From positions 44,449 through 108,448 of the forward strand of contig OY729431.1 in NCBI GenBank assembly GCA_963422395.1: 64,000 bases of DNA, given 5' to 3'. Each line of letters opens with the position of its first letter. Position 1 is the first letter of the stretch. A program made the translations under genes and the position numbers. Shown piece by piece: positions 8,487-63,731 of this stretch. The notes under the pieces are model-generated. The model did no database searches and had not been told where the DNA came from. It saw nothing but the letters and a program-made list of their open reading frames with translations. The DNA is from Vicinamibacteria bacterium (GTDB lineage Bacteria; Acidobacteriota; Vicinamibacteria; Marinacidobacterales; Marinacidobacteraceae).

Positions 8487-9605
8487 ATGCCCGCAGCCGC
8501 GAAACCAGGGGCACTCCCCGAGGTCCGCCGGGACTCGATCCGCCGGGCCGAAGTTCGCGTGCCCACGCCCGACCTCGACGGCGACCTGCGATTCCTGGTG
8601 GACACCCTCGGTTTTCGGCTCGAGCGCATCTGGCCCGCCGACGATCCCGCGTTCTGCTCGCTTACCGGCTACGGGGCGGGAATCCGCTTGGAGCGGAGCA
8701 CCGGCGCCGCGGCGGCGGAAATCACTCTCCATACCGAGGATCCGGCACGGTTCGCCGGCGGCGAGCAGATGCTCGTTACCCCCGGCGGTCTCCGGATCAC
8801 GGTAGCGGCAGCAACCCCGCAGGCCGCTATTCCGGAAACCGTCCACGAACTCGTGGTCCGTCGGCTGGCCGAACAGGAGTCCTGGGGCGTCGGCCGCGCG
8901 GGGATGCGCTACCGGGACCTGATCCCCGGCCGGCTGGGAGGCGCCATCATCGCTTCGCACATCCGGATCGCTGACGAGGGGCCGGTGGACGACCTGGTCC
9001 ACTACCACACGGTCGGCTTCCAGCTCATCTTCTGCCACCGCGGCTGGGTTCGGCTGGTCTACGAGGATCAGGGCCCGCCCTTCGTGCTGGAGGCCGGGGA
9101 CTGCGTGATCCAGCCCCCGGAGATTCGCCACCGGGTGCTCGCCTCCTCCGCCGGGATGGAGGTGATCGAAGTCGGCGTTCCCGCCGAGCACCTCACCACG
9201 ATAGACCACGCCATGGAGTTGCCGACTCCTCATTTCCGCCCCGAGCGCGCGTTCCAGGGCACCAGGTTCCTGCGGCATCGAGAGCGGGGGGCGCGTTGGG
9301 AGCCCTGGCGCATCCCCGGGTTCGAGATGCGCGACACCGGGGTCGCTCGGGCCACACGGGGGATCGCGGGAGTTCAGGTTGCTCGAAGGGTCCCCGGGCG
9401 GGCGGTTCCAGCCAGCAGCCACGATCGGGACATCCTGTTCGGTTTCGTGCGCAGGGGGACGATGTACTTGGAGGCCGAGGACCACCCCCGGCGGACACTC
9501 GCCGCCGGCGACACCTTCGTCCTGCCGCCGCACCTTCCGGTCGCTCTCGGAAGCCCCTCCGACGACCTCGAGATCCTCGAAGTGACGCTGCCGGCCGGCT
9601 GCTAG
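8487..9605 (+). CDS. bicupin (double cupin-fold) protein
   Basis: Two cupin-like segments are present: HYHTVGFQLIFCHRGWVRLVYEDQG and DILFGFVRRGTMYLEAEDH...GDTFVLPPH. The competing minus-strand ORF is low-complexity. Confidence 0.5.
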   Translation: MPAAAKPGALPEVRRDSIRRAEVRVPTPDLDGDLRFLVDTLGFRLERIWPADDPAFCSLTGYGAGIRLERSTGAAAAEITLHTEDPARFAGGEQMLVTPGGLRITVAAATPQAAIPETVHELVVRRLAEQESWGVGRAGMRYRDLIPGRLGGAIIASHIRIADEGPVDDLVHYHTVGFQLIFCHRGWVRLVYEDQGPPFVLEAGDCVIQPPEIRHRVLASSAGMEVIEVGVPAEHLTTIDHAMELPTPHFRPERAFQGTRFLRHRERGARWEPWRIPGFEMRDTGVARATRGIAGVQVARRVPGRAVPASSHDRDILFGFVRRGTMYLEAEDHPRRTLAAGDTFVLPPHLPVALGSPSDDLEILEVTLPAGC

Positions 9606-9640
9606 CTGTGACCTTGCGGTAGGTTGTTCAGGGGGAAATG

Positions 9641-9697
9641 AACACTACATATAGTGGTCGATCGCGTCTGGAATCGTTCTGCAGCGCAGGCTGCTAG
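9641..9697 (-). mobile_element. MITE-A family element (57-bp copy, reverse orientation; may extend to 9605 with a degenerate left end)
   Basis: Reverse complement tCTAGCAGCCTGCGCTGCAGAACGATTCCAGACGCGATCGACCACTATATGTAGTGT is ~93% identical to 11402-11457. It sits immediately after the TAG stop (9603-9605) of the cupin gene. Confidence 0.6.
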
Positions 9698-9771
9698 ACC
9701 GGACCCGTCTGACTGAAGCGCGCGCCGGGGGCTGCCTCGGCGTTTCTCCGGAGGGCGCTCGAAGGGGCGGC

Positions 9772-11400
9772 TCACTTCTCCCGGTATCCCGGGCCGCGCA
9801 GCACCCGTCCCGGCAGGGCACCCGTCGGTTCCCCGTCGGCGACGACCGCGATCCCGTTCACGAAGACCCATTCGATGCCTTCCGGGTAGCGTTCCGGCTC
9901 CTCGAAGGTGGCGGCGTCGCGCACCGTAGCCGGATCGAAGAGCACCAGATCGGCGCGCATTCCGGGGCGGAGGAGGCCGCGGTCGGTGAGACCGAGGCGG
10001 TTCGCCGGCGCCGAAGTCATCTTGCGGACCGCTTCTTCGAGGGAAAGAAGCCCTTCCTCGCGCACATAGCGGGCGAACACTCGCGGATGGGTCCCGAAGG
10101 AGCGGGGGTGAGGCTTCCCCATCGGAGTCCGCATCCCCCGAGCGAGGGCGCTGCCGTCCGAACCGATGTGGGTGAAAGGCAGCGAGAGCGCCTGGCGCAG
10201 GTTGGCTTCCGTGTTCCCGAACGAGATCTGGAATCCCTCTCCTTCCTGTTCCACGAGCAGGTCGAGGAGCGCCTCCGCCGGCGACAGTCCCCGCGCCTCG
10301 CCGAGGTCCAGGATCGAGAGGCCGTCGACCTCTTCGCGGAACGAGCTCACGAAAGTCCGCTCCCATCGCGGCCGCTCCCTTTCTCCGGCGCGCAGCTCCG
10401 AAAGCAGCAGCTGCCGCTCGCCGGGGTCGGTGAGCCGACGCAGCATCCGCCCAACGCCGCCCTCCTGGGCCCAGCGAGGGAGCAGAGAGCGCAGGTAGGT
10501 CCATCCGGCGATGTACGGATAGACATTGCCGGTGACATCCACTCCGGAAGCGCGGGCTTCGGCGATCACCGCCGCGTACTCCGCGATCCGCTCCCCCGAA
10601 GTGGAGTTGAGATGATGGATCTCGAGGGCGATTCCCGCCTCGCGGGCGATGCGGATTCCTTCGGACAACCCGGCGAGCCCGCCCCGCAGGTGGCTCACAT
10701 AGAAACCGCCGGAGGACGCCGCGACCCGCGCCAGGCGGATCAGTTCCTCGGTGCTTGCAAAGGCGTTCGGGATGTACGCCATCCCGCTCGAAAGCGCGAA
10801 CGCCCCCTCTTCCATCGCCTGGGACACGAGCGTCTCCATGGCCTGCAGCTCCGCTTCCGACGCGGCGCGCTCTTCGTATCCCATCACCGAGGCGCGCACC
10901 TGACCGGCGCCCACATAGGAGACGACATTGGGACCGACGCCGGCGAACTCGAGCCGATCGAGATAGCCGCCGAGCGTCGTCCAGTCGCGTTCGATCGGAG
11001 GAGCGACCATCATCGGGTCATCCACCGCAAGACCGAGAACCGGCCCGCCCGAGAGGTGCTCGCCGAGCACTTCGGTGGTGACCCCCTGCGCAACCTTGCT
11101 GAGCGCGCGCGGGTCCACGATGAGCCCGTATTCCGAGTGGGCGTGCATGTCGAGGAACCCGGGTGCGGCGACCAGCCCTTCGGCTTCGATCACGCGCAGG
11201 GCTTCCGGTTCCGCAGAGCCGACCTCGACGATGGTGTCTCCGGCGACGACGAGGTTCCCGCGGAACCAGGGACCGCCGGAACCGTCCACGACCCGCGCTC
11301 CCCGGAGGAGCAGGTCGGCAGTGGGCGAATCGCCCGGTGCCGGGCCGCAACCCGCAGCGAGTCCAAAGGCCCAAAGGACGAACGGAAGGGGTCGCGCCAC
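9772..11400 (-). CDS. N-acyl-D-amino-acid deacylase (D-aminoacylase) family amidohydrolase, probable lipoprotein
   Basis: LLLRGARVVDGSGGPWFRGNLVVAGDTIVEVG...FLDMHAHSE is the D-aminoacylase/metal-dependent amidohydrolase pattern. The N-terminus ARPLPFVLWAFGLAAGC has a lipobox. Alternative starts are GTG 11400, or ATG 11445 inside the MITE-A copy. Confidence 0.65.
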   Translation of the reverse strand: MARPLPFVLWAFGLAAGCGPAPGDSPTADLLLRGARVVDGSGGPWFRGNLVVAGDTIVEVGSAEPEALRVIEAEGLVAAPGFLDMHAHSEYGLIVDPRALSKVAQGVTTEVLGEHLSGGPVLGLAVDDPMMVAPPIERDWTTLGGYLDRLEFAGVGPNVVSYVGAGQVRASVMGYEERAASEAELQAMETLVSQAMEEGAFALSSGMAYIPNAFASTEELIRLARVAASSGGFYVSHLRGGLAGLSEGIRIAREAGIALEIHHLNSTSGERIAEYAAVIAEARASGVDVTGNVYPYIAGWTYLRSLLPRWAQEGGVGRMLRRLTDPGERQLLLSELRAGERERPRWERTFVSSFREEVDGLSILDLGEARGLSPAEALLDLLVEQEGEGFQISFGNTEANLRQALSLPFTHIGSDGSALARGMRTPMGKPHPRSFGTHPRVFARYVREEGLLSLEEAVRKMTSAPANRLGLTDRGLLRPGMRADLVLFDPATVRDAATFEEPERYPEGIEWVFVNGIAVVADGEPTGALPGRVLRGPGYREK

Positions 11401-11401
11401 G

Positions 11402-11519
11402 CTAGCAACCTGCGCCGCAGAACGATTCCAGACGCGATCGACCACTATATGTGATGTTCATCGACGAATCGATCTACTACATATAGTGGTCATTCTTTTC
11501 TGCGGCGCAGACTCCTAGA
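11402..11519 (+). mobile_element. MITE-A family element, full palindromic copy (~116 bp) with ~16-bp terminal inverted repeats and flanking TA
   Basis: TA|GCAACCTGCGCCGCAGAACGATTCCAGACGCGATCGACCACTATATGT...ACATATAGTGGTCATTCTTTTCTGCGGCGCAGACTCC|TA. Left and right ends are inverted repeats (GCAACCTGCGCCGCAG / CTGCGGCGCAGACTCC). Spurious ORFs through the copies translate to the recurring peptide CAAERFQTRST. Confidence 0.65.
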
Positions 11520-13938
11520 AGAACCGGAGCGAGTAGCTGATTCGGAACCCCCGGCCCCGCTGGGGAGCGAGATCCTTGATCAGCGAGGTGTGGTGACGGT
11601 AGTCGGTGTCTGTCAGGTTGTACGCCCGGACAGAAATGTTGGAGGTGGTGTGGTCGCTGAGGAAGACATAGGAAGCGGTGAAGTCGAGGACCGCGTACCC
11701 GTCGGTCGCGGTCTCGGTGCGGTACAGCCGATCCATCCGGGCTGCCCACCGCAGGCTGGGCGTCAGCTGGAGTCTGCCGACGGGGACATCGAGCCGCAGT
11801 TGGCCGCCGAGCGGGGGGATGCGCGGCAGGTATTCGTTCGAGGCGGTCAGCTGCGCATCCACGAAGGAAGCATTCGCCACCAGTTCCGCAGCGCCGATGT
11901 CCAGATGCCCTTCCACTTCGAAACCCTGGTACACGGCATCTGCTTGCAAGAATTCGAGGATCGGAAGCCCCCCTAGCTCTTCCCCGGCGGCGGCTCCGAA
12001 GATGAAATCGCCGATGTCGTAGCGAAACACGCTGAGACTACCGCTCGCATTCTCCGAGCCCTGCCGGAGGCTCAGATCGAGACCGAACGAGCGTTCCGTG
12101 CCGAGGTCGGGATTCCCGATCTCGAAGGCCAGGTTCCCGACATGGGGGCCGAAGTTGTAGAGCTCTTCCAGCGAAGGAGTGCGGGTCGAGTAGCTGGCTA
12201 CGGCCACCAGCGCGGACTGGTCGGTGAGAGAGAAACGGGCGCCTCCGCTCACCGAGCTCCCGAGAAAGTTCCGGTCTCTCACCGGCGCCGGCTCTTCGTG
12301 GTGCTCCTCCTCGTGGGGTTCTCCTTCCTCGTGCCCCTCTTCCTCATGCTCCTCTTCCTCATGCTCCTCTTCGTGGTGTTCCCCTTCCTCGGCGTCGTAC
12401 CGGTTTCGCTCGAGCCGGGCTCCCAGCATCCAGCTCAGGCGGTCGCTCATCCGAATTTCGTTGTAGGCGAACGCTGCCATCGAGTTTTGATGGGTCTGGG
12501 GAGCGAGAGCCTCCTCGCCCCTCGATTCGTAATCCCGGAAATGACCCCAGCCGCCTACTCGGCTCTGGACTCGGCCGGCCGACCGTTTCAGCTCCCCCCG
12601 GATCACCAGGGACCGATTGTCGAAGTGCGTCGCGATCTCGTCCGGCCCCCCAGCTGACAGTGTTTCGATTTCGTCCTGGTCGTAGTCGCTGTAGCGAAGG
12701 GTGAATTCGGCCTCCTGGAATACGGAACCCAGCTCCCGGATGCCGAAATCGGTCCGGACCTGCCGCCGCGCCATGGCGACATCCACCAACAGCTCCTCGT
12801 CTTCGTGAGCTTCTTCTTCCTCGTGGCCTTCCTCCTCCTCGTGTCCGTGGGCTCCGTGAAACTGCCCGGCGAACGGCACTCCGTAGCGCGAATCGTCCAA
12901 TTTCGCACTCGCGGCGAACCAACCGCGGTCGAAGGAGAGACCGAAGCCGGCTTCGCCCTGTTCCATCGAAGTCTCCGAGTTCTCCACCACACCGGCCGGG
13001 GATTCGTAGTCGCCGGTTCGATTCGCGTTGCCGCCGCCCCAGGCGAACCAGCCGGCACCGGAAGCCTGGACGCGGGCGCCGCCGCGGAGACCTTCATCGG
13101 CGGTCGAATAGTCGAGGTTCGCATGCCCCCGGAATCCGGCGGGAGGTCCATGGACCAGATGCGAGGCCATCGAGACCACATTCACCGCCCCGCCGATGGC
13201 GTTCGCTCCGTAGAGCAGAGTGGCCGGCCCGCGCACCACCTCGACCCGCTCCGCCTGTAGCGGGTCCAACGGGACGCCGTGGTCCGCAGATTGGCTGCCC
13301 AGGTCTCCCGTCCGCACTCCATCCTCCATCACCAGGACGCGGTCCCCATCGAAACCGCGCACCACCGGGCGGGCCGAACCCGGTCCGAAGCTGCGGACCG
13401 CCAAGCCTGGCGCGCCCTCGAGGAGCTCTGCCACCGTGCGCGCGGATTCGTTCTGCAGATCGAGCCCCTCGAAGGTCTGTACCGAATTGAATGCCTCGAT
13501 CGCGGTTTCGGGCCTGGCGGACGCCGTGACCGTGATGTGCTCGTGCGCCCGCGGCCGGAGTTCCAACAGGATCGGTGCGGGCAACTCGAAGGCGACTTCC
13601 TCGTCCTCGTCCACGACGACGGTTTCCACCGCGCTCAGGAAGCCCTGATCCACATGGAAAGTGAGGGCGCCGCGGTGCTCCACCGCCTCGAAGGAAAACC
13701 GTCCGTGCTCGTCGGTGTGGGTTACCCGGTTGGATTCCAGGAGGACGACTTCGGCGTCATGGGCGGGCTGACCGGTCTCGGCGATGAGCACGGCGCCCGA
13801 GACGGTGGGGTGGGCCCAAGCAGCGGGCGCGAGCCCGAGCCCGAGCCCGAACGACAAAGCGACCCGGGCCGCTGCCCTCGGAAACACCAGGGTCGGGAAA
13901 GAAGAATGGGGAAAACGGAAGGGGAATAGCCGCGGCAT
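11515..13938 (-). CDS. TonB-dependent outer-membrane receptor with N-terminal carboxypeptidase-regulatory-like domain and His/Glu-rich low-complexity inserts
   Basis: Signal peptide, then a plug region (LLEGAPGLAVRSFGPGSARPVVRGFDGDRVLVMEDGVR), a beta-barrel and a C-terminal aromatic YSLRFF. Two inserts, HGHEEEEGHEEEEAHEDEE and EEGEHHEEEHEEEEHEEEGHEEGEPHEEEHHEE, are present. Confidence 0.8.
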   Translation of the reverse strand: MPRLFPFRFPHSSFPTLVFPRAAARVALSFGLGLGLAPAAWAHPTVSGAVLIAETGQPAHDAEVVLLESNRVTHTDEHGRFSFEAVEHRGALTFHVDQGFLSAVETVVVDEDEEVAFELPAPILLELRPRAHEHITVTASARPETAIEAFNSVQTFEGLDLQNESARTVAELLEGAPGLAVRSFGPGSARPVVRGFDGDRVLVMEDGVRTGDLGSQSADHGVPLDPLQAERVEVVRGPATLLYGANAIGGAVNVVSMASHLVHGPPAGFRGHANLDYSTADEGLRGGARVQASGAGWFAWGGGNANRTGDYESPAGVVENSETSMEQGEAGFGLSFDRGWFAASAKLDDSRYGVPFAGQFHGAHGHEEEEGHEEEEAHEDEELLVDVAMARRQVRTDFGIRELGSVFQEAEFTLRYSDYDQDEIETLSAGGPDEIATHFDNRSLVIRGELKRSAGRVQSRVGGWGHFRDYESRGEEALAPQTHQNSMAAFAYNEIRMSDRLSWMLGARLERNRYDAEEGEHHEEEHEEEEHEEEGHEEGEPHEEEHHEEPAPVRDRNFLGSSVSGGARFSLTDQSALVAVASYSTRTPSLEELYNFGPHVGNLAFEIGNPDLGTERSFGLDLSLRQGSENASGSLSVFRYDIGDFIFGAAAGEELGGLPILEFLQADAVYQGFEVEGHLDIGAAELVANASFVDAQLTASNEYLPRIPPLGGQLRLDVPVGRLQLTPSLRWAARMDRLYRTETATDGYAVLDFTASYVFLSDHTTSNISVRAYNLTDTDYRHHTSLIKDLAPQRGRGFRISYSLRFF

Positions 13939-14046
13939 GGTGGAACCTCCTGTGCGCTGGGCATGGGAGGAACCGACCGAATAGAAGCCGGCCGACCAGG
14001 CCGGAAGGTTCCGAAAAAGGGGTATCCGCAGATACGCGCCGGCCGT

Positions 14047-14313
14047 TCAGGCCGGGGGTGCGCGGGGGATGCCGCCGGTCAGCTTGGGGGCATCCGCAAC
14101 GAAAAGTTGCGCTACGGCGCCCTCACCGACCCACTCGGAAGCGAGGGGCAGTTCCGGCCCGGCCGGCGGAGTAGCAACCCCCGCCCCGGAGCTTTCACAG
14201 ATCCGGCATTCCGAACCTGGTCGGTCAGGATGCTCATGGGCGAAAGCCCCGATCGACGCCGTCAGCAGCAACGCCGCCATCGCGACGGCGACGACGCGGG
14301 CGAAATTATTCAC
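14047..14313 (-). CDS. small secreted protein (signal peptide; HEH...CxxC motif), possible periplasmic metal-binding partner of the TonB-dependent receptor
   Basis: MNNFARVVAVAMAALLLTASIGAFA is a signal peptide, followed by HEHPDRPGSECRICE. The gene lies directly upstream of the TBDR gene on the same strand. Confidence 0.35.
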   Translation of the reverse strand: MNNFARVVAVAMAALLLTASIGAFAHEHPDRPGSECRICESSGAGVATPPAGPELPLASEWVGEGAVAQLFVADAPKLTGGIPRAPPA

Positions 14314-14340
14314 AGAGACGGACAGACCTTCTCTGTGATT

Positions 14341-14397
14341 CTAGCAATCTGTGCCGCAGAAGGATTCCAGACCCGATCGACCCCATCCATAGCACTC
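14341..14397 (+). mobile_element. MITE-A family remnant (5' half, diverged)
   Basis: TA|GCAATCTGTGCCGCAGAAGGATTCCAGACCCGATCGACC matches 11402-11443 at about 35 of 43 positions; the 3' part is lost. Confidence 0.45.
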
Positions 14398-14532
14398 GCA
14401 ACCGGGGTTCGCGCGCCCACGGAAGGCTGACCTTCGCGGAAACGGGTGCGGCTCGCCGAAGGCAGCGCCGACTACGATAGCGGCGCCTCGGGCCGGTGGG
14501 GTTCGATCGGAAAAGCGAACAGGAGCAGGCGA

Positions 14533-16776
14533 TTGCGGAGCGGAGTGCCCATCGGAATATCGGTCGTGCTGGCGGCGGTCGGACTGGCAGCGGTCGGACT
14601 GGCAGCGGGCTGGCTGGCGCCGGTGGAATCTGCGCCGGGCGGGCTCGCGCAGCGGCAGTCCCTCGGCCCGCTCGAACCGGTTCCGGCCGAAGGGGCTCCC
14701 GGTCTTTTTCGCCTGGCGATGTACCCCACCCCGGATCTCGCCCCGGCGACAGGAGCGGCCACCCTGCTCTGGGACCCCAGCCCCTTCGGCGTCTCGGTGA
14801 CCCGCGACGGAAACCAGCGCTACCGCATCGCTCTCGACATCACCGGGCTTCCTGAACCGGAGTCGCTCGGCGACTACCGGACTTATGTCGCCTGGGCGAC
14901 CACCCCGGTGTTCCAGCCGACGGTGCGCCTCGGCGAAGTCGGTAACGGATCGTTTCCGAATCTCGGAGTGGTGTCTTTCGACAAGTTCGTCCTCCTGGTG
15001 AGCGCCGAACCCTCCGGTGCGGTGGAAACGCGCACCGGCCGGCTGGTCCTGCGCGGCGCCTCCCCTTCGACCCGCATCCTTCCCGACAACCACCTGATGG
15101 TTCCGGTGAGCGGGAGCGGCGAGGCAGGAGCCGGCTCCGCGGCCCCGGACCACGCGGCGATGAGCCACGGGGCGGGGGAGGACGGGGAAGCCTCCGGGTG
15201 GCCGCATCCGCCGATGCTCGAGGAGACCCCGATGGTCCCCGGGCTCGGCCACCTGCGCCCGGAACCCCTGCCGTTCCTGCCGCGGGCGCCCGCCGACACC
15301 GCACTCCCCGATGCGGAGCCCTCGCAGATCGTCCGTCTGCGCGACGGGCAGACGCTCGATCTGATCGCCGGCCGGGTGAGGCGCCGCATCCACGGTCGAG
15401 ACTATGTGATGTACGGCTTCAACGGCCAGTACCCCGGACCGATGGTGCATGTGGATCGGGACGCCACCCTCTTCGTCGACTTCGAAAATCGGACCTCGTG
15501 GCCGACGGCGATCCACTGGCACGGAGTGCGGCTCGACAACGCCTTCGACGGCGTGCCCCATGTCACCCAGGATCCGGTGCCGCCGGGGGGCCGCTTCCAG
15601 TACCGGATCCACTTCCCGGACGCCGGCCTCTACTGGTATCACCCCCATCACCGCGAGGAGGTCCAGCAGGATCTCGGTCTCTACGGGAACCTGCTGGTCG
15701 AGGCTCCGGCGAACGAGTGGTACGCCCCGGTCCACCGCGAAGAGATCCTGATGCTCGACGATCTCCTGATCGCCGACGATGGCGGCCTTTTCCCCTGGGG
15801 AAGCAGCCGGGCGACCCATGCCCTCATGGGCCGGTTCGGCAACCTGCTGTTGGTCAACGGAGAGCCGGGGTACGAACTGGCTCTCGACCGGGGGGAAGTC
15901 GTGCGCTTCTTCCTCACGAATGTCTCGAACACCCGCACCTTCAACCTGGGGTTCGGAAAACCGGGCACCCACCGGATCAAGGTCGTCGGGTCCGACCTCT
16001 CCAAGTACGAGCGGGAGACCTGGGTGGATTCGGTCACGCTCGCCCCTGCCGAGCGTTACATCGTCGAGGTTCGCTACGAACAGTCCGGGGAGCACGCGCT
16101 GGAAAACCGCGTGCGCCCGCTGGAGCACGCCTTCGGCAGCTACTTCTCGAGGGTGAGCGCGCTGGGGACGGTTCGGGTCGGCGAGCGGGAGGCCGATCCG
16201 GCCGGCGCGCCCGGCTACGACTCACTGCGGGAGAACGCATCGGTGGTGGAGGAAGTGGACCGTTACCGGGCTCGTTTCGACGCGCCCCCGGACCGGGAAC
16301 TCGTTCTCAGCATGGAGGTTTCCGGCCTCGATCCGGCGATCATGCAGCGGATGCGCGCCGACCGGGTGTTCTTTCCCCCGGTGGAGTGGGCGCCGACCAT
16401 GCCCATGATGAATTCGGTCGCAACTCCAGACGAAGTGCGATGGATCGTGCGGGAACCGACGACCGGCCGAGAGAACATGGACATCGCCTGGCGTTTCCGG
16501 GTCGGCGATCTCGTCCACATCCGCATCGCGAACGACGCCGGCGCCCTCCACGCCATGCAGCACCCCTTCCACATCCACGGCCAGCGGTTCCTCGTGGTCC
16601 GCCGCAACGGCGCTCTCGTCGAGAACCAGGTGTTCAAGGACACCGTGCTGATCCCGGCCGGAGAAACCGTGGACATCCTGCTCGAAGTCACGAACCCCGG
16701 CAAGTGGATGGCCCATTGCCATATCGCCGAGCACCTCGAAGCCGGAATGCGCTTCGTCTTCGAAGTCGACCCCTGA
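14533..16776 (+). CDS. multicopper oxidase (laccase/CueO-like, extended form)
   Basis: Copper-site motifs HWHGVRL, WYHPHH and HCHIAEHLEAGM. The N-terminal TM/signal is VPIGISVVLAAVGLAAVGLAAGWLA. The start is a TTG at 14533 preceded by AGGAG at 14521; alternatives are ATG 14446 or GTG 14545. Confidence 0.75.
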   Translation: MRSGVPIGISVVLAAVGLAAVGLAAGWLAPVESAPGGLAQRQSLGPLEPVPAEGAPGLFRLAMYPTPDLAPATGAATLLWDPSPFGVSVTRDGNQRYRIALDITGLPEPESLGDYRTYVAWATTPVFQPTVRLGEVGNGSFPNLGVVSFDKFVLLVSAEPSGAVETRTGRLVLRGASPSTRILPDNHLMVPVSGSGEAGAGSAAPDHAAMSHGAGEDGEASGWPHPPMLEETPMVPGLGHLRPEPLPFLPRAPADTALPDAEPSQIVRLRDGQTLDLIAGRVRRRIHGRDYVMYGFNGQYPGPMVHVDRDATLFVDFENRTSWPTAIHWHGVRLDNAFDGVPHVTQDPVPPGGRFQYRIHFPDAGLYWYHPHHREEVQQDLGLYGNLLVEAPANEWYAPVHREEILMLDDLLIADDGGLFPWGSSRATHALMGRFGNLLLVNGEPGYELALDRGEVVRFFLTNVSNTRTFNLGFGKPGTHRIKVVGSDLSKYERETWVDSVTLAPAERYIVEVRYEQSGEHALENRVRPLEHAFGSYFSRVSALGTVRVGEREADPAGAPGYDSLRENASVVEEVDRYRARFDAPPDRELVLSMEVSGLDPAIMQRMRADRVFFPPVEWAPTMPMMNSVATPDEVRWIVREPTTGRENMDIAWRFRVGDLVHIRIANDAGALHAMQHPFHIHGQRFLVVRRNGALVENQVFKDTVLIPAGETVDILLEVTNPGKWMAHCHIAEHLEAGMRFVFEVDP

Positions 16777-19916: not shown

Positions 19917-20672
19917 CTATTCGACGAATGGTTCGAACTCTTCGCCACTCATCGGTTCGTGCTTGTCCCAACGGCTGTGCATCTCGATCAGCAGGCGCTG
20001 CGCCGTCGGATGGGGAGCCCGATTGACCCGCACCACACTGGCCCGATACTCCCCCTTCGACTCCACCATGCTCATCGTCAGATCGTGTACGAAGTACCGT
20101 GGCGCCCACCCGATCAGGAAATAGTCCCGAGTCTGAATCTGGACGGCAGGCTGCTTCGTCGGATTCGTGAGTTCCAGTGCGACATGCAGCTTATCGCCCG
20201 GCTGGAGAGAGTCCATCCGTTCCCGCGCTGACGGATTCGTGTGCCGGAAGCCGTGGAGAAAGAACCGACAGACGAAACTCCCGTCGCCCCGCTTGACGAG
20301 CTTCGGAAACACTTCGAAAAAGTCGGTCACCCGATACCCGCCGTCCACCCACAGGATCTCCGTGGGATCCACGGACGGGTCGAGACCGAGGCCTTTCAGG
20401 TAATCCTTGAAATCCGGACGGCGAGGCGACATGACCCGGTTCCGGAAAACCGGAAAAAGTTCGGACGACTCATAATCGCCGTGCAACTCGGCGAACCCGG
20501 GGACCAGATCGAATCCTCCGGTCTTCCGGGCGCGTTCCGCGCCTTTCACATGTCGAAATCGGTACCACGGCCTCGCCTCATCCGCATCCAGGCGCCCCAC
20601 GGGGAACCACTGCCGACTCGCCGCCCGATCCTGCCACCCCAAGTAGAGTGTTCTTTCGCTCACTTCATGCAA
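19917..20672 (-). CDS. hypothetical protein; N-terminus resembles the HipA N-terminal (Couple_hipA/HipS-like) domain
   Basis: A 251-aa ORF with a TTG start overlaps the HipA-like kinase gene end by 13 nt. The N-terminus LYLGWQDRAASRQWFPVGRLDADEARPWYRFRH follows the HipA-N pattern (LxVxLxGxxVGxLxxxxxxxxxFxY). Confidence 0.4.
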   Translation of the reverse strand: MHEVSERTLYLGWQDRAASRQWFPVGRLDADEARPWYRFRHVKGAERARKTGGFDLVPGFAELHGDYESSELFPVFRNRVMSPRRPDFKDYLKGLGLDPSVDPTEILWVDGGYRVTDFFEVFPKLVKRGDGSFVCRFFLHGFRHTNPSARERMDSLQPGDKLHVALELTNPTKQPAVQIQTRDYFLIGWAPRYFVHDLTMSMVESKGEYRASVVRVNRAPHPTAQRLLIEMHSRWDKHEPMSGEEFEPFVE

Positions 20673-27647: not shown

Positions 27648-28029
27648 GGGGGCGCACTGGGTTCGACGAAGGTACATGAGGCTGCGACTGCATGTCGGGG
27701 GTCCACCTCTCGTAAACGGTGGAAACAAAACACACACGCCAACACTGAACTGGCTCTGGCTGCTTAAGCCACGTCCTTCCTGACCTCGCCTGCCGGGCGG
27801 GAAAGGGCGTCGACTAGGTGGGCTTTGCCGGCGGTTCTCCCGGATCGTCGGTGAGCCTCAGGGATAGTTTCCGCAGCGCGACTCGCCGGGTCGATGCGGT
27901 GCGGAAGCGAACCGGGAAGGGCACCCTCGGGTGCGGATTCCCGAAACGACCTGGATATGCATGTAGAAGTCGCCGCGGAAGGCTTTCGGACGCGGGTTCG
28001 ATTCCCGCCGCCTCCACCATATTTTCCGC
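27648..28029 (+). ncRNA. ssrA: tmRNA (ssrA), tag peptide ANTELALAA
   Basis: The 5' GGGGGCGCACTGGGTTCGACG pairs with the 3' ...GGACGCGGGTTCGATTCCCGCCGCCTCCACCA, giving a T-arm and an acceptor stem with a G-U at position 3. The internal reading frame GCC AAC ACT GAA CTG GCT CTG GCT GCT TAA encodes the tag. Confidence 0.8.
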
Positions 28030-34251: not shown

Positions 34252-34695
34252 GTGACCCCGGAACTCATCGCTATCCTCGCGGTAGGGGTCGGGCTCGCGG
34301 GCCTGCTCATCAGCGGCCAGCGCTCGGCCGCAGGAGACCGCCAGGCCATCCGAGAGGAGCTTCGCTCCGGTTTCCAGGCCGCCGCAGGAGACCGCCAGGC
34401 CATCCGAGAGGAGCTTCGCTCCGGTTTCCAGGCCGCCGCAGGAGACCGCCAGGCCATCCGAGAGGAGCTTCGCTCCGATTTCCAGGCCGCCGCAGGAGAC
34501 CGCCAGGCCATCCGAGAGGAGCTTCGCTCCGGTTTCCAGGCCGCCGCCGAAGACCGCCAGGCCATCCGGCAGGAACTCGCCGCGATTCAGGCCGATCTCC
34601 ACACTCTGGGGGAACGCATCGCCCGGCTCGAAGGGGCTTTCCCGTTCCTCGCCGCCCGGTCGGCTCCGCCGGACAGTCAGCAGCGCCCCACCTGA
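34252..34695 (+). CDS. small membrane-anchored coiled-coil protein built from 18-aa tandem repeats (AAGDRQAIREELRSGFQA)
   Basis: GTG start after GGGGGA. An N-terminal TM helix (LIAILAVGVGLAGLLI) is followed by 5 tandem 18-aa units. Confidence 0.45.
   Translation: MTPELIAILAVGVGLAGLLISGQRSAAGDRQAIREELRSGFQAAAGDRQAIREELRSGFQAAAGDRQAIREELRSDFQAAAGDRQAIREELRSGFQAAAEDRQAIRQELAAIQADLHTLGERIARLEGAFPFLAARSAPPDSQQRPT
34327..34596 (+). repeat. 54-bp tandem repeat x5 (4 near-perfect plus 1 degenerate) inside the 34252..34695 CDS
   Basis: Unit GCCGCAGGAGACCGCCAGGCCATCCGAGAGGAGCTTCGCTCCGGTTTCCAGGCC repeats head-to-tail at 34327, 34381, 34435 and 34489, with a diverged copy at 34543. Confidence 0.85.
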
Positions 34696-54608: not shown

Positions 54609-56962
<2,354 letters not shown>

Positions 56963-56987
56963 GAAGCGGGTCTATTCCTGTCTATTC

Positions 56988-57174
56988 CCTAGCAGCCTGT
57001 GGATGAAGTGGCGCGAGCCCAAAGAGCGGTGAGGCGCCCGGCTGGCAAGGCGCGTGAGGGAGGAATACCGAGTGTATTTCGACCGAAACGCAACGATGAG
57101 CGCCGTGAAACGGCGCGGTTCAGCCGGGATGCATCGCCGCTCGACGGCCGTGTGACTTTGTCCACAGGCTGCTA
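56988..57174 (+). mobile_element. MITE-B family element, copy 1 (~187 bp, 15-bp terminal inverted repeats CTAGCAGCCTGTGGA/TCCACAGGCTGCTAG, flanking TA)
   Basis: Near-identical copies are at 62607-62786 (reverse) and 63531-63729. It sits in the atpA-atpG intergenic space, and its terminal CTAG supplies the atpA TAG stop. Confidence 0.7.
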
Positions 57175-58692
57175 GGACGCGCGGGCGCGGAAGACCTCGC
57201 GCTCGAACTCGGAGATCGCCTCCCGGAGCGCTGCGGTGAGCGAATCGTCGAGTTTCTTCTCTTCGCGGATCCGCAGGAGCGTGCCCGGATGGCGGGCCGC
57301 GAGAAATTCGTGGAGTTCCGCCTCGAAGCCGCGGCAATCGCGCGGCGCGAGATCATCCAGGAATCCCTCGTTCGCGGCGAAGATGGCCGCCACCTGTTTC
57401 TCCACTGGCAGCGGCTGGTACTGGTCCTGTTTCAACACTTCGGTGAGGCGCTCTCCCTTCGCCAGTTGCGCCTGGGTGGCCTTGTCGAGATCCGAGCCGA
57501 ACTGGGCGAATGCCGCCATCTCCCGGTACTGAGCCAGCTGGAGGCGCATCGTGCCGGCCACTTGCCGCATGGCCCGGATCTGCGCCGAACCCCCGACTCG
57601 GCTCACCGAGTTGCCCACATTGATCGCCGGTCGGATTCCGGCGTTGAACAAGTCGCTTTCGAGATAGATCTGCCCGTCGGTGATCGAGATGACATTCGTG
57701 GGCACATAGGCCGAAAGGTCGCCGGCCTGGGTCTCGATGAAGGGGAAGGCGGTGAGAGAGCCGCCGCCCCGTTCGTCGGAAAGCTTGGACGCCCGCTCGA
57801 GCAGCCGCGAGTGGAGATAGAAGACATCCCCAGGGTAGGCCTCGCGCCCGGGGGGCCGCCGAAGCAGGAGCGAGATCTCCCGATAGGCGGCCGCGTGTTT
57901 CGAGAGGTCGTCGTAGATGCACAGCGCGTGGCCGCCGCGGTCCATGAAGTACTCGCCCATGGCGCAGCCGGAGTAGGGAGCGAGGTACTGGAGAGGTGCT
58001 GGCTCCGAAGCGGAGGCCGAGACCACGATCGTGTGGTCGAGAGCGCCATGGTCCTCGAGGGTGCGGACCACCTGCGCCACCGTGGAGAGCTTTTGTCCCA
58101 CGGCGACATAGACCGCGACCACGCCGGTGTCCCGCTGGTTGATGATCGCGTCCACGGCAATCGCCGTCTTGCCGGTCTGGCGGTCGCCGATGATGAGTTC
58201 ACGCTGCCCCCTGCCGATGGGGATCATGGCGTCCACCGCCTTCACCCCGGTCTGGAGCGGCTCCTTGACCGGCTGCCGGGCCACGATGCCCGGGGCGATC
58301 CGTTCCACCGGGTTCGCCTCGGAGGTCTCGATGGGGCCCTTGCCGTCGAGGGGCCGCCCGAGGGCGTCCACCACCCGGCCCTTCATCGCCTCGCCCACCG
58401 GCACCTGGAGGATCCGATGGGTGCGCCGCGCCGTGTCTCCCTCGCGGATACGGGCGACTTCGCCGAAGAGCACGAGTCCCACGGCGCTCTCTTCGAGGTT
58501 CAGCGCCAGCCCGAAGACCTCGTGGGGCAACTCCACGAGCTCCCCGTACATGACGCCTTCGAGGCCGTGCACTCGGGCGATCCCGTCTCCCGAAGAGACC
58601 ACGGTGCCGATCTCGGCGACATCCACCCCCGGCTGGTGGCCGGCGATCTGTTCCCGCAGCAAAGCGGCGATTTCATCGGCTCGAATGGTCAT
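57172..58692 (-). CDS. atpA: F1 ATP synthase subunit alpha
   Basis: P-loop GDRQTGKTA and the full alpha-subunit sequence. The ATG at 58692 gives [16 protein letters not shown]. Confidence 0.85.
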
Positions 58693-62606: not shown

Positions 62607-62850
62607 CTAGCAGCCTGTGGACGAAGTCGCACGGCCGTCGACCAGCGATGCATCACGGCGGAAACACTCCGCTCGGCGTTGTTGCGATTCGGTCGGAATA
62701 CTCCCGGTATGCCTCCCGAATCGCGCCTTGTCCGCCGCGCGCCTCGCCACTCTTTGGGCTCGCGCTACTTCATCCACAGACTGCTAGAAGCCACATGGAC
62801 GAAGTCACCCGGCCGTCGACCGGCGATGTTTCCCGTGAAACATCTTCCAT
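62607..62850 (-). mobile_element. MITE-B family element, copy 2 (reverse orientation, 62607-62786) plus an abutting partial half-copy (62787-62850)
   Basis: CTAGCAGCCTGTGGACGAAGTCGCACGGCCGTCGACCAGCGATGCATC...CTTCATCCACAGACTGCTAG. It lies 17 nt upstream of the parA start. A truncated repeat of the same end follows. Confidence 0.7.
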
Positions 62851-63526: not shown

Positions 63527-63530
63527 GGAC

Positions 63531-63731
63531 TGCTAACAGCCTGTGGATGAAGTGGCGCGAGCCCAAAGAGTGGTGAGGCGCGCGGCGGACAAGGCGCGAT
63601 TCGGGAGGCATACCGGGAGTATTCCGACCGAATCGCAACAATGCCGAGCGAAGCGGTTCAGGCGGGGCCCCCACCGGGAGAACTGGGCATCGCCGACCTT
63701 TGGCCGGGTGACTTTGTCCACAGGCTGCTAA
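63531..63731 (+). mobile_element. MITE-B family element, copy 3 (~199 bp; left end variant CTAACAGCCTGTGGA), preceded by a solo TIR-like fragment TCCACGGACTGCTA
   Basis: It lies between the yidC stop and the rsmG start. The terminal CTA supplies the yidC stop codon, and the upstream TIR-like fragment overlaps the rsmG start region. Confidence 0.7.

Follow-up and report, generated by a model that had tools for sequence, protein, structure and literature searches.

CTAG-flanked miniature inverted-repeat elements, probably inserted beside a resident D-aminoacylase-like gene, in a Vicinamibacteria bacterium

Introduction

The Correia elements of Neisseria, together with other bacterial MITEs (miniature inverted-repeat transposable elements) that lie between cistrons, form hairpins, measure ~100-150 bp, occupy TA-containing targets and are co-transcribed with their neighbours, and promoter, terminator or RNase III roles are known for Correia elements. 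REP and REPIN elements, which go with RAYT transposases, are extragenic and palindromic, ~100 bp long and present in high copy number. Here we analyse a comparable repeat, family A, in a 64,000-nt stretch of the genome of a Vicinamibacteria bacterium (assembly GCA_963422395.1, contig OY729431.1, positions 44,449 to 108,448; hereafter the window, in whose positions all element coordinates are given), where its three copies lie around a D-aminoacylase-like lipoprotein gene and the TonB-dependent receptor gene next to it. We consider it likely, with good confidence, that these repeats are separate copies of a non-autonomous terminal-inverted-repeat element, that is a MITE, inserted at CTAG beside a gene that they found in place.

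Among the closest known elements, by description, is MITEPsy1 of Pseudomonas syringae pv. phaseolicola, a 100-nt relative of IS5 with terminal repeats of ~18 nt that duplicates 4 nt, CTAG or YTAA (PMC3189936). The target duplications of IS5 itself follow YTAR (PMC5009759), and for IS630 a preference for the TA within CTAG is cited (Tenzen and Ohtsubo 1991, as cited in PMC2170065). Family A shares with MITEPsy1 a length of ~100 nt, the lack of coding capacity, terminal inverted repeats, multiple copies and a CTAG target; the hosts belong to different phyla, the likeness is one of description, and a 4-bp duplication is suggested here not for family A but by one CTAA/CTAA-flanked copy of a sister family, family B. 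With MITEs derived from IS630/Tc1-mariner elements it has in common the CTAG target, the TA at both ends, the short body bounded by terminal inverted repeats and the tolerance of intergenic sites. It differs from them in that a TA duplication would leave element ends G...C, that the CTAA/CTAA copy of family B would need an extra coincident mutation, and that no IS630-type transposase was found in the open reading frames (ORFs) and loci scanned. The Correia elements are matched in hairpin formation, size (~100-150 bp), TA-containing target and position between genes, in an unrelated family and host. Literature searches combining MITEs, IS630 and Acidobacteria brought up nothing of relevance, and families A and B apparently form a MITE pair that had not been described before.

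Results

Anatomy of the family-A copies

The initial annotation had drawn attention to two inverted ~57-bp repeats, ~93% identical, on either side of the amidohydrolase gene. A repeat search, with which local BLAST agrees, extends these to inverted arms of 60 nt, 9638-9697 and 11402-11461, which are 93% complementary (56/60) and separated by 1704 nt. The two are not the only copies, a third having been overlooked:

11402-11518, unstranded: family-A MITE, complete at 117 bp and bounded on either side by CTAG, terminal inverted repeats of ~21 bp (CTAGCAACCTGCGCCGCAGAA / CTAGGAGTCTGCGCCGCAGAA), interior near-palindromic
9638-9697, unstranded: one-armed family-A copy, comprising the long arm and its terminal repeat, outer CTAG at 9694-9697
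14341-14382, unstranded: family-A arm remnant CTAGCAATCTGTGCCGCAGAAGGATTCCAGACCCGATCGACC, 90.5% identity over 42 nt (local BLAST)

Three occurrences of a 13-nt core, ACATATAGTGGTC, were counted in the window, where shuffles predict 0.09. The copy at 11402-11518 is, as had been proposed, a full palindromic element with TA flanks, the TA being part of a CTAG on either side. Complementarity is 86% between its outer arms (11402-11422 and 11498-11518) and 79% between the arms of a further inverted pair in the interior (11429-11452 and 11479-11502); as single-stranded DNA the element forms a predicted hairpin of -31.6 kcal/mol (z -8.7), and as RNA with its flanks the predicted fold is -68 kcal/mol (z -5.4). 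The RNA structure of the one-armed copy is not unusual (z +0.9). There is no ORF of 60 aa or more inside the 117 bp. The earlier description of two copies facing each other across the gene holds as far as the inverted arms go, but the downstream copy has one arm only, and the near-symmetry of the full element leaves the orientation with little significance.

Genes and junctions at the locus

The genes that adjoin these copies are the following:

8487-9605, plus strand: bicupin gene (Pfam), TAG stop at 9603-9605 within the CTAG at 9602-9605
9772-11400, minus strand: D-aminoacylase-like amidohydrolase gene, predicted lipoprotein, probable start GTG 11400, ORF open back to GTG 11445
11515-13938, minus strand: TonB-dependent receptor gene, with Plug, beta-barrel and CarboxypepD_reg domains and a C-terminus ...SYSLRFF* as in its orthologues
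14446-16776, plus strand: multicopper oxidase gene, a synteny anchor common to the relative L008

The complete copy lies between the stop codon of the TonB receptor and the start codon of the amidohydrolase, the one-armed copy in the 166-bp spacer of the convergent cupin and amidohydrolase genes, and the remnant at 14341-14382 in the spacer from which the multicopper oxidase gene and the unit of a small ORF and the TonB receptor diverge. Given this remnant on its far side, the TonB receptor gene is bracketed by copies just as the amidohydrolase gene is. Read on the minus strand, the receptor gene ends ...TTC TAG, the TAG (11515-11517) being part of the right CTAG of the element; after the left CTAG come C and GTG. 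The TAG stop of the cupin gene sits in a CTAG as well; in the 36 nt that run from this CTAG to the recognisable one-armed copy (9602-9637), alignment detects no element sequence.

The designation of the amidohydrolase as a D-aminoacylase-like lipoprotein was borne out. The protein belongs to Pfam Amidohydro_3, its best Protein Data Bank matches are the D-aminoacylases 1M7J and 1RJP (E ~1e-65), homologues are named N-acyl-D-amino-acid deacylase by JGI, and the HxH metal motif, present as DMHAHSE, is conserved in the homologue alignment. At 229 bits against a cut-off of 340 it falls below the NCBIfam subfamily threshold, and the similarity to D-aminoacylases does not fix the substrate. Its N-terminus, ...AFGLAAGC, is of the lipoprotein type. 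In an N-terminal alignment 11 homologues have only ~20 residues ahead of the lipobox cysteine, and a start at GTG 11400 (MARPLPFVLWAFGLAAGC) is therefore favoured, whereas one at GTG 11445 would add 15 element-encoded residues and fits the homologues poorly. The initial annotation had placed the first in-frame ATG at 11445 and had the element contribute 15 codons; the codon at 11445 is GTG, the likely start lies 1 nt outside the element, and the element probably contributes no codons to the gene.

The mechanically derived ORF of the amidohydrolase over-extends into the MITE. The identical database protein, P0001, has a public gene call of 505 aa that begins at an internal start (MDGSGGPW...) and hence lacks the lipoprotein signal peptide.

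The locus in related genomes

In the relative L008 (a 2.88-Mb contig) the amidohydrolase is 83% identical to that of the window, and the two genomes are colinear at the DNA level through the multicopper oxidase gene, a small HEHP...GIPRAPPA ORF, the TonB receptor gene and the amidohydrolase gene. No copy of family A or B is present at the L008 junctions. In the five other relatives examined a TonB receptor gene lies upstream of the amidohydrolase, with an extra outer-membrane protein gene between them, and in the window the G+C content of the amidohydrolase gene equals that of its neighbours. From the copy-free synteny of L008, the receptor linkage kept in the relatives and the uniform G+C content, it follows that the amidohydrolase would have been in place before the elements. 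It had been suggested that the gene was mobilised as a composite unit, with the same gene in the same place without the repeats named beforehand as the observation that would contradict this; L008 presents just that gene order. The two facing copies are independent insertions of a near-symmetric element.

DNA colinearity between the window and L008 breaks off precisely where the amidohydrolase gene ends 3' (around 9698-9771) and the one-armed copy lies, and this may mark the scar of a rearrangement. The downstream neighbours are cupin/DUF2461 genes in the window, OEP/cation efflux genes in L008 and HipA/HIRAN genes in the others; a HIRAN-domain gene is found in the window at 19917-20672, on the other side of the block.

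Family A elsewhere

We scanned by pattern a collection with one genome per species, in which the source genome is not included. Apart from one chance match in an Ottowia gene, family A was found only in OY282382.1, a Vicinamibacterales chromosome; the family occurs in Vicinamibacteria (Acidobacteriota). There, within six 8-kb stretches (48 kb), OY282382.1 carries 9 copies of ~117 bp and one 37-nt fragment. All seven intact copies (7/7) begin with GAGTCTGCGCCGCAG directly after a CTAG and end with CTGCGGCGCAGACTC directly before another; their terminal repeats are near-perfect, and they align end to end with 11402-11518 at 72-74% identity. The genes that they adjoin are different and unrelated. 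The small size, below the ~500 bp taken as the limit for a bacterial MITE, the lack of an ORF, the terminal inverted repeats, the constant flanks and the many copies beside unrelated genes together identify family A as a MITE, and the label given to it earlier stands.

Several of the OY282382.1 copies are stacked head to tail with other CTAG-flanked repeats (L002 7195-7627, L007 6384-6584, L003 7230-7360 and L004 480-548), among which there are at least two further kinds, CTAGCCCGGAGAGCGTCGCCTGCGGCTCC...GGCGCAGACTCCTAG and CTAGTGGTCCGTCACGTCAT...GACTTGAGTCGAACG.... The stacking suggests repeated hits on a CTAG regenerated by each insertion.

Consistent pairing within family A is confined to the terminal repeats, with a covariation term of ~0, and the covariance models of Rfam 15 gave no match at E<=1 for 9550-9800, 11350-11570 or 56950-57220, the sole match in the window being a transfer-messenger RNA (tmRNA). 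With neither an Rfam match nor covariation, the reading of family A as a structured RNA was rejected. Metagenome matches to the two-repeat pattern CTGCGCYGCAG...CTGCRGCGCAG were set aside as chance in GC-rich DNA, none among the matches listed having the flanks or interior of the family. Viral contigs scanned with either terminal repeat gave chance 15-mers or nothing, and plasmid BLAST with families A and B returned nothing useful.

The sister family and its empty site

The window also holds copies of family B:

56989-57175, unstranded: family-B MITE, ~187 bp, beginning with CAGCCTGTGGA... directly after a CTAG, inserted at the stop codon of atpA, with atpG on its other side
62607-62787, unstranded: family-B MITE, a further window copy
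63530-63731, unstranded: family-B MITE, a further window copy, flanked by CTAA/CTAA
62796-62835: family-B solo arm

For this family filled and empty sites can be compared directly. Seven contigs whose AtpA is 94% identical read GCCTAGGGAA at the atpA/atpG junction, where the window reads TCCTAG, then the element (CAGCC...GGCTG), then CTAGGGAA; within the sequences compared, this is direct evidence of insertion with a duplication footprint. Among named sequences, the best matches of the window AtpA are those of Vicinamibacteria and Vicinamibacterales, at ~80% identity, which likewise places its organism near the Vicinamibacteria.

The family-B copies are placed at the atpA stop within the atp operon, beside the parA start, and between the TAG stop of an upstream gene and the rsmG start; further copies occur in the relatives L011 (8920-9123) and L013 (429-633). 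Beside the copy upstream of atpG the window has a 10-nt tandem duplication (56960-56988, GGAATAGACA GGAATAGACC), at the position of which the relatives have only GGAACCCCG.

The CTAG target and stop codons

The window contains 21 CTAG sites, against 193 expected from base composition (a nearly 10-fold depletion) and 55 expected under a Markov model; among the 21 sites, 9 are family-A or family-B element ends. An element end falls on the stop codon of the TonB receptor gene and on that of atpA, and the stop codon of the cupin gene would mark a putative end of the one-armed copy. The receptor of the window stops with TAG, followed by family A, and its orthologue in L013 stops with TAG, followed by a family-B copy; in L008, L009/L010 and L012 the orthologues stop with TGA and no element is present. 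Similarly, a PQQ-repeat gene of OY282382.1 ends CCC TAG and is followed by family A, and its orthologues in L205 and L206 end with TGA and have no element. The TGA-ending orthologues are thus empty and several TAG-ending ones occupied; C-TAG stop codons without an element also exist.

These observations can be accommodated by a simple scheme. A transposase encoded elsewhere would insert family A at the tetranucleotide CTAG, with duplication of all four bases or of just the TA in the middle. The genome is strongly depleted in CTAG, and several of the examined sites are TAG stops that follow a codon ending in C, where elements would accordingly come to sit; insertion at the end of a gene would restore its stop codon, for which reason the elements would lie between cistrons with the genes unbroken. 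At the locus described here, the complete copy would have split by 113 bp a compact junction at which the receptor stop was followed at once by the amidohydrolase start (TTC TAG C GTG). With the element taken away, the sequence here would be TTCTAGCGTG, in which a single base separates the stop codon from the start codon, within a putative empty allele ...TTCTAGCGTGGCG..., and the amidohydrolase itself would already have been in place when the complete copy arrived.

Other features of the window

The segment at 465-520, CTAGCAGCCTctcccgctgctcgccgaaggccgagggccgcgaaAGGCTGCTG, resembles a very short or decayed derivative, its CAGCCT ends being those of families A and B. The two CTAG sites 465 and 1625 (~1.16 kb apart) were considered as a full-length insertion sequence and rejected: the pair encloses a FAA-hydrolase-like gene and no transposase, and 1625 is not the partner of 465-520. 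An AAA_15/AAA_21 (AbiEii-like) ATPase gene at 1622-2866 is a possible defence or toxin-antitoxin component. The tmRNA gene lies at 27648-28019 and encodes the tag peptide ANTELALAA. A tandem array of five 54-bp units, the middle units being 99% identical, occupies 34273-34596 within a small ORF of high GC content (34252-34695), with a gene for a TPR protein just downstream.

Discussion

Origin of the elements

No transposase was detected among the 29 window ORFs scanned, in the fetched loci or, by BLAST, in plasmids. The CTAG that flanks each copy having both ends intact, and the CTAA/CTAA flanks of 63530-63731, are consistent with YTAR. The latter copy, a single non-CTAG case in family B only, would favour a 4-bp YTAR duplication. 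The assignment to IS630/Tc1 is unproven, and an IS5-like 4-bp YTAR duplication fits at least as well. In L205 a large HTH_29 / Transposase_29 gene (1-1915) lies directly upstream of the PQQ-repeat gene orthologue.

Several points count against the interpretation of the three repeats as MITE insertions at CTAG. The family-A count in the source genome comes from the 64-kb window alone (n=3), and two of the three are remnants that lack a second end and whose boundaries are inferred. Family A has no exact empty site: in the relatives without the element the stop codon is TGA, so that the CTAG is missing there too. An autonomous element with matching terminal repeats was not found in the 29 window ORFs or the fetched loci. 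Finally, the spacer between receptor and amidohydrolase is 105 bp in L008, as against the 1 nt proposed for the ancestral junction.

Alternative explanations

Given that related inverted copies bracket exactly one gene, with CTAG at the outer ends 9602 and 11518, it was reasonable to ask whether they had jointly moved the amidohydrolase in as the cargo of a composite transposon; a single ancestral CTAG could in principle even have served as the overlapping stop of convergent cupin and TonB receptor genes. However, L008 preserves the receptor-amidohydrolase adjacency, with the multicopper oxidase upstream, in the absence of any copy, and the TonB receptor gene is upstream in all the other relatives examined. 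Each copy moreover has a CTAG of its own at its outer end (a CTAG at both ends being demonstrable only for the complete copy), the downstream copy is one-armed, the TonB receptor gene has a third copy on its far side, and composition does not change across the amidohydrolase, all of which makes this explanation extremely improbable. A host regulatory element, whether operator array, terminator or structured RNA, repeated because it controls the receptor and the amidohydrolase, might be suspected from the three copies within 5 kb around two functionally linked genes and from short interior palindromes such as CACTAnnnnTAGTG. We give it next to no credence, since the same family stands beside unrelated genes in OY282382.1, the orthologous loci lack family A, and no Rfam match, U-tract terminator or covariation was found.

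The elements also bear some resemblance to REP/REPIN-type extragenic palindromes, which owe their spread to a RAYT (Y1 HUH) and not to a DDE transposase: they are extragenic, palindromic, hairpin-forming doublets of ~117 bp with many copies in intergenic DNA, and the terminal repeat has a core, CTGCGCCGCAG, that is near-palindromic in its own right. This origin is nonetheless very unlikely. Every intact copy has the palindromic CTAG on both sides, the sister family shows a duplication footprint when filled and empty sites are compared, and no RAYT or Y1 transposase gene is seen among the window ORFs scanned. To our knowledge, HUH transposition yields no such footprint.

Possible effects on expression

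Independently of how it arrived, and compatibly with its being a MITE, the complete copy might have been exapted to supply the promoter, ribosome-binding site or start of the amidohydrolase gene, or to modulate its expression through the hairpin. The initial annotation had suggested, as one of two options, that the element provides promoter and start, and of this the part that holds is positional: the element makes up the whole of the 113 bp upstream of the likely start, any ribosome-binding site included, a weak AGG within the terminal repeat stands 8 nt upstream of GTG 11400, and the ORF is open to GTG 11445 inside the element. The predicted -68 kcal/mol RNA hairpin reaches, and partly pairs with, the start region, and the tolerance of a family-B copy in the atp operon means that read-through or internal initiation must occur there. 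On the other side, the element has no ATG, the homologue N-termini favour a start outside it, its sequence is no more conserved than that of a mobile element would be, and a scan of 9400-14600 for terminator and promoter consensus returned no sigma-70-like site and no U-tract after the element; we regard exaptation as unlikely on balance. The tolerance of family B inside the atp operon does make read-through plausible, and in a read-through transcript the element could form a long hairpin. Because it replaces the sequence just 5' of the start and the modelled hairpin partly pairs with the start region, an effect on translation or mRNA stability of the amidohydrolase is possible.

Proposed homing to stop codons

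A tentative proposal, which we consider rather unlikely, goes further and holds that several Vicinamibacteria MITE families with CTAG-adjacent ends act as 'stop-codon-homing' elements. Their insertions would land precisely between cistrons, even within the atp operon, each restoring the stop codon and making a second CTAG that can be hit again, and the tandem pile-ups in OY282382.1 could arise because each insertion creates another target.

Implications

The locus is an ordinary mobile-element situation, its mild interest lying in CTAG-specific MITEs that accumulate on TAG stops and regenerate the target with each insertion. Its analysis removes the tempting but wrong reading that the gene was carried in by the flanking repeats, corrects the start of the amidohydrolase relative to the 505-aa public annotation, and cautions annotators against ORFs that run spuriously into such elements. 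It also documents two paired MITE families from a soil phylum that has been little studied. The association with TAG stops in a CTAG-poor genome illustrates how target specificity and oligonucleotide bias together can steer mobile DNA to harmless sites between genes, and, were stop-codon homing to prove true, the contrast of empty TGA-ending and occupied TAG-ending orthologues would mean that stop-codon choice and CTAG avoidance co-evolve with the elements.

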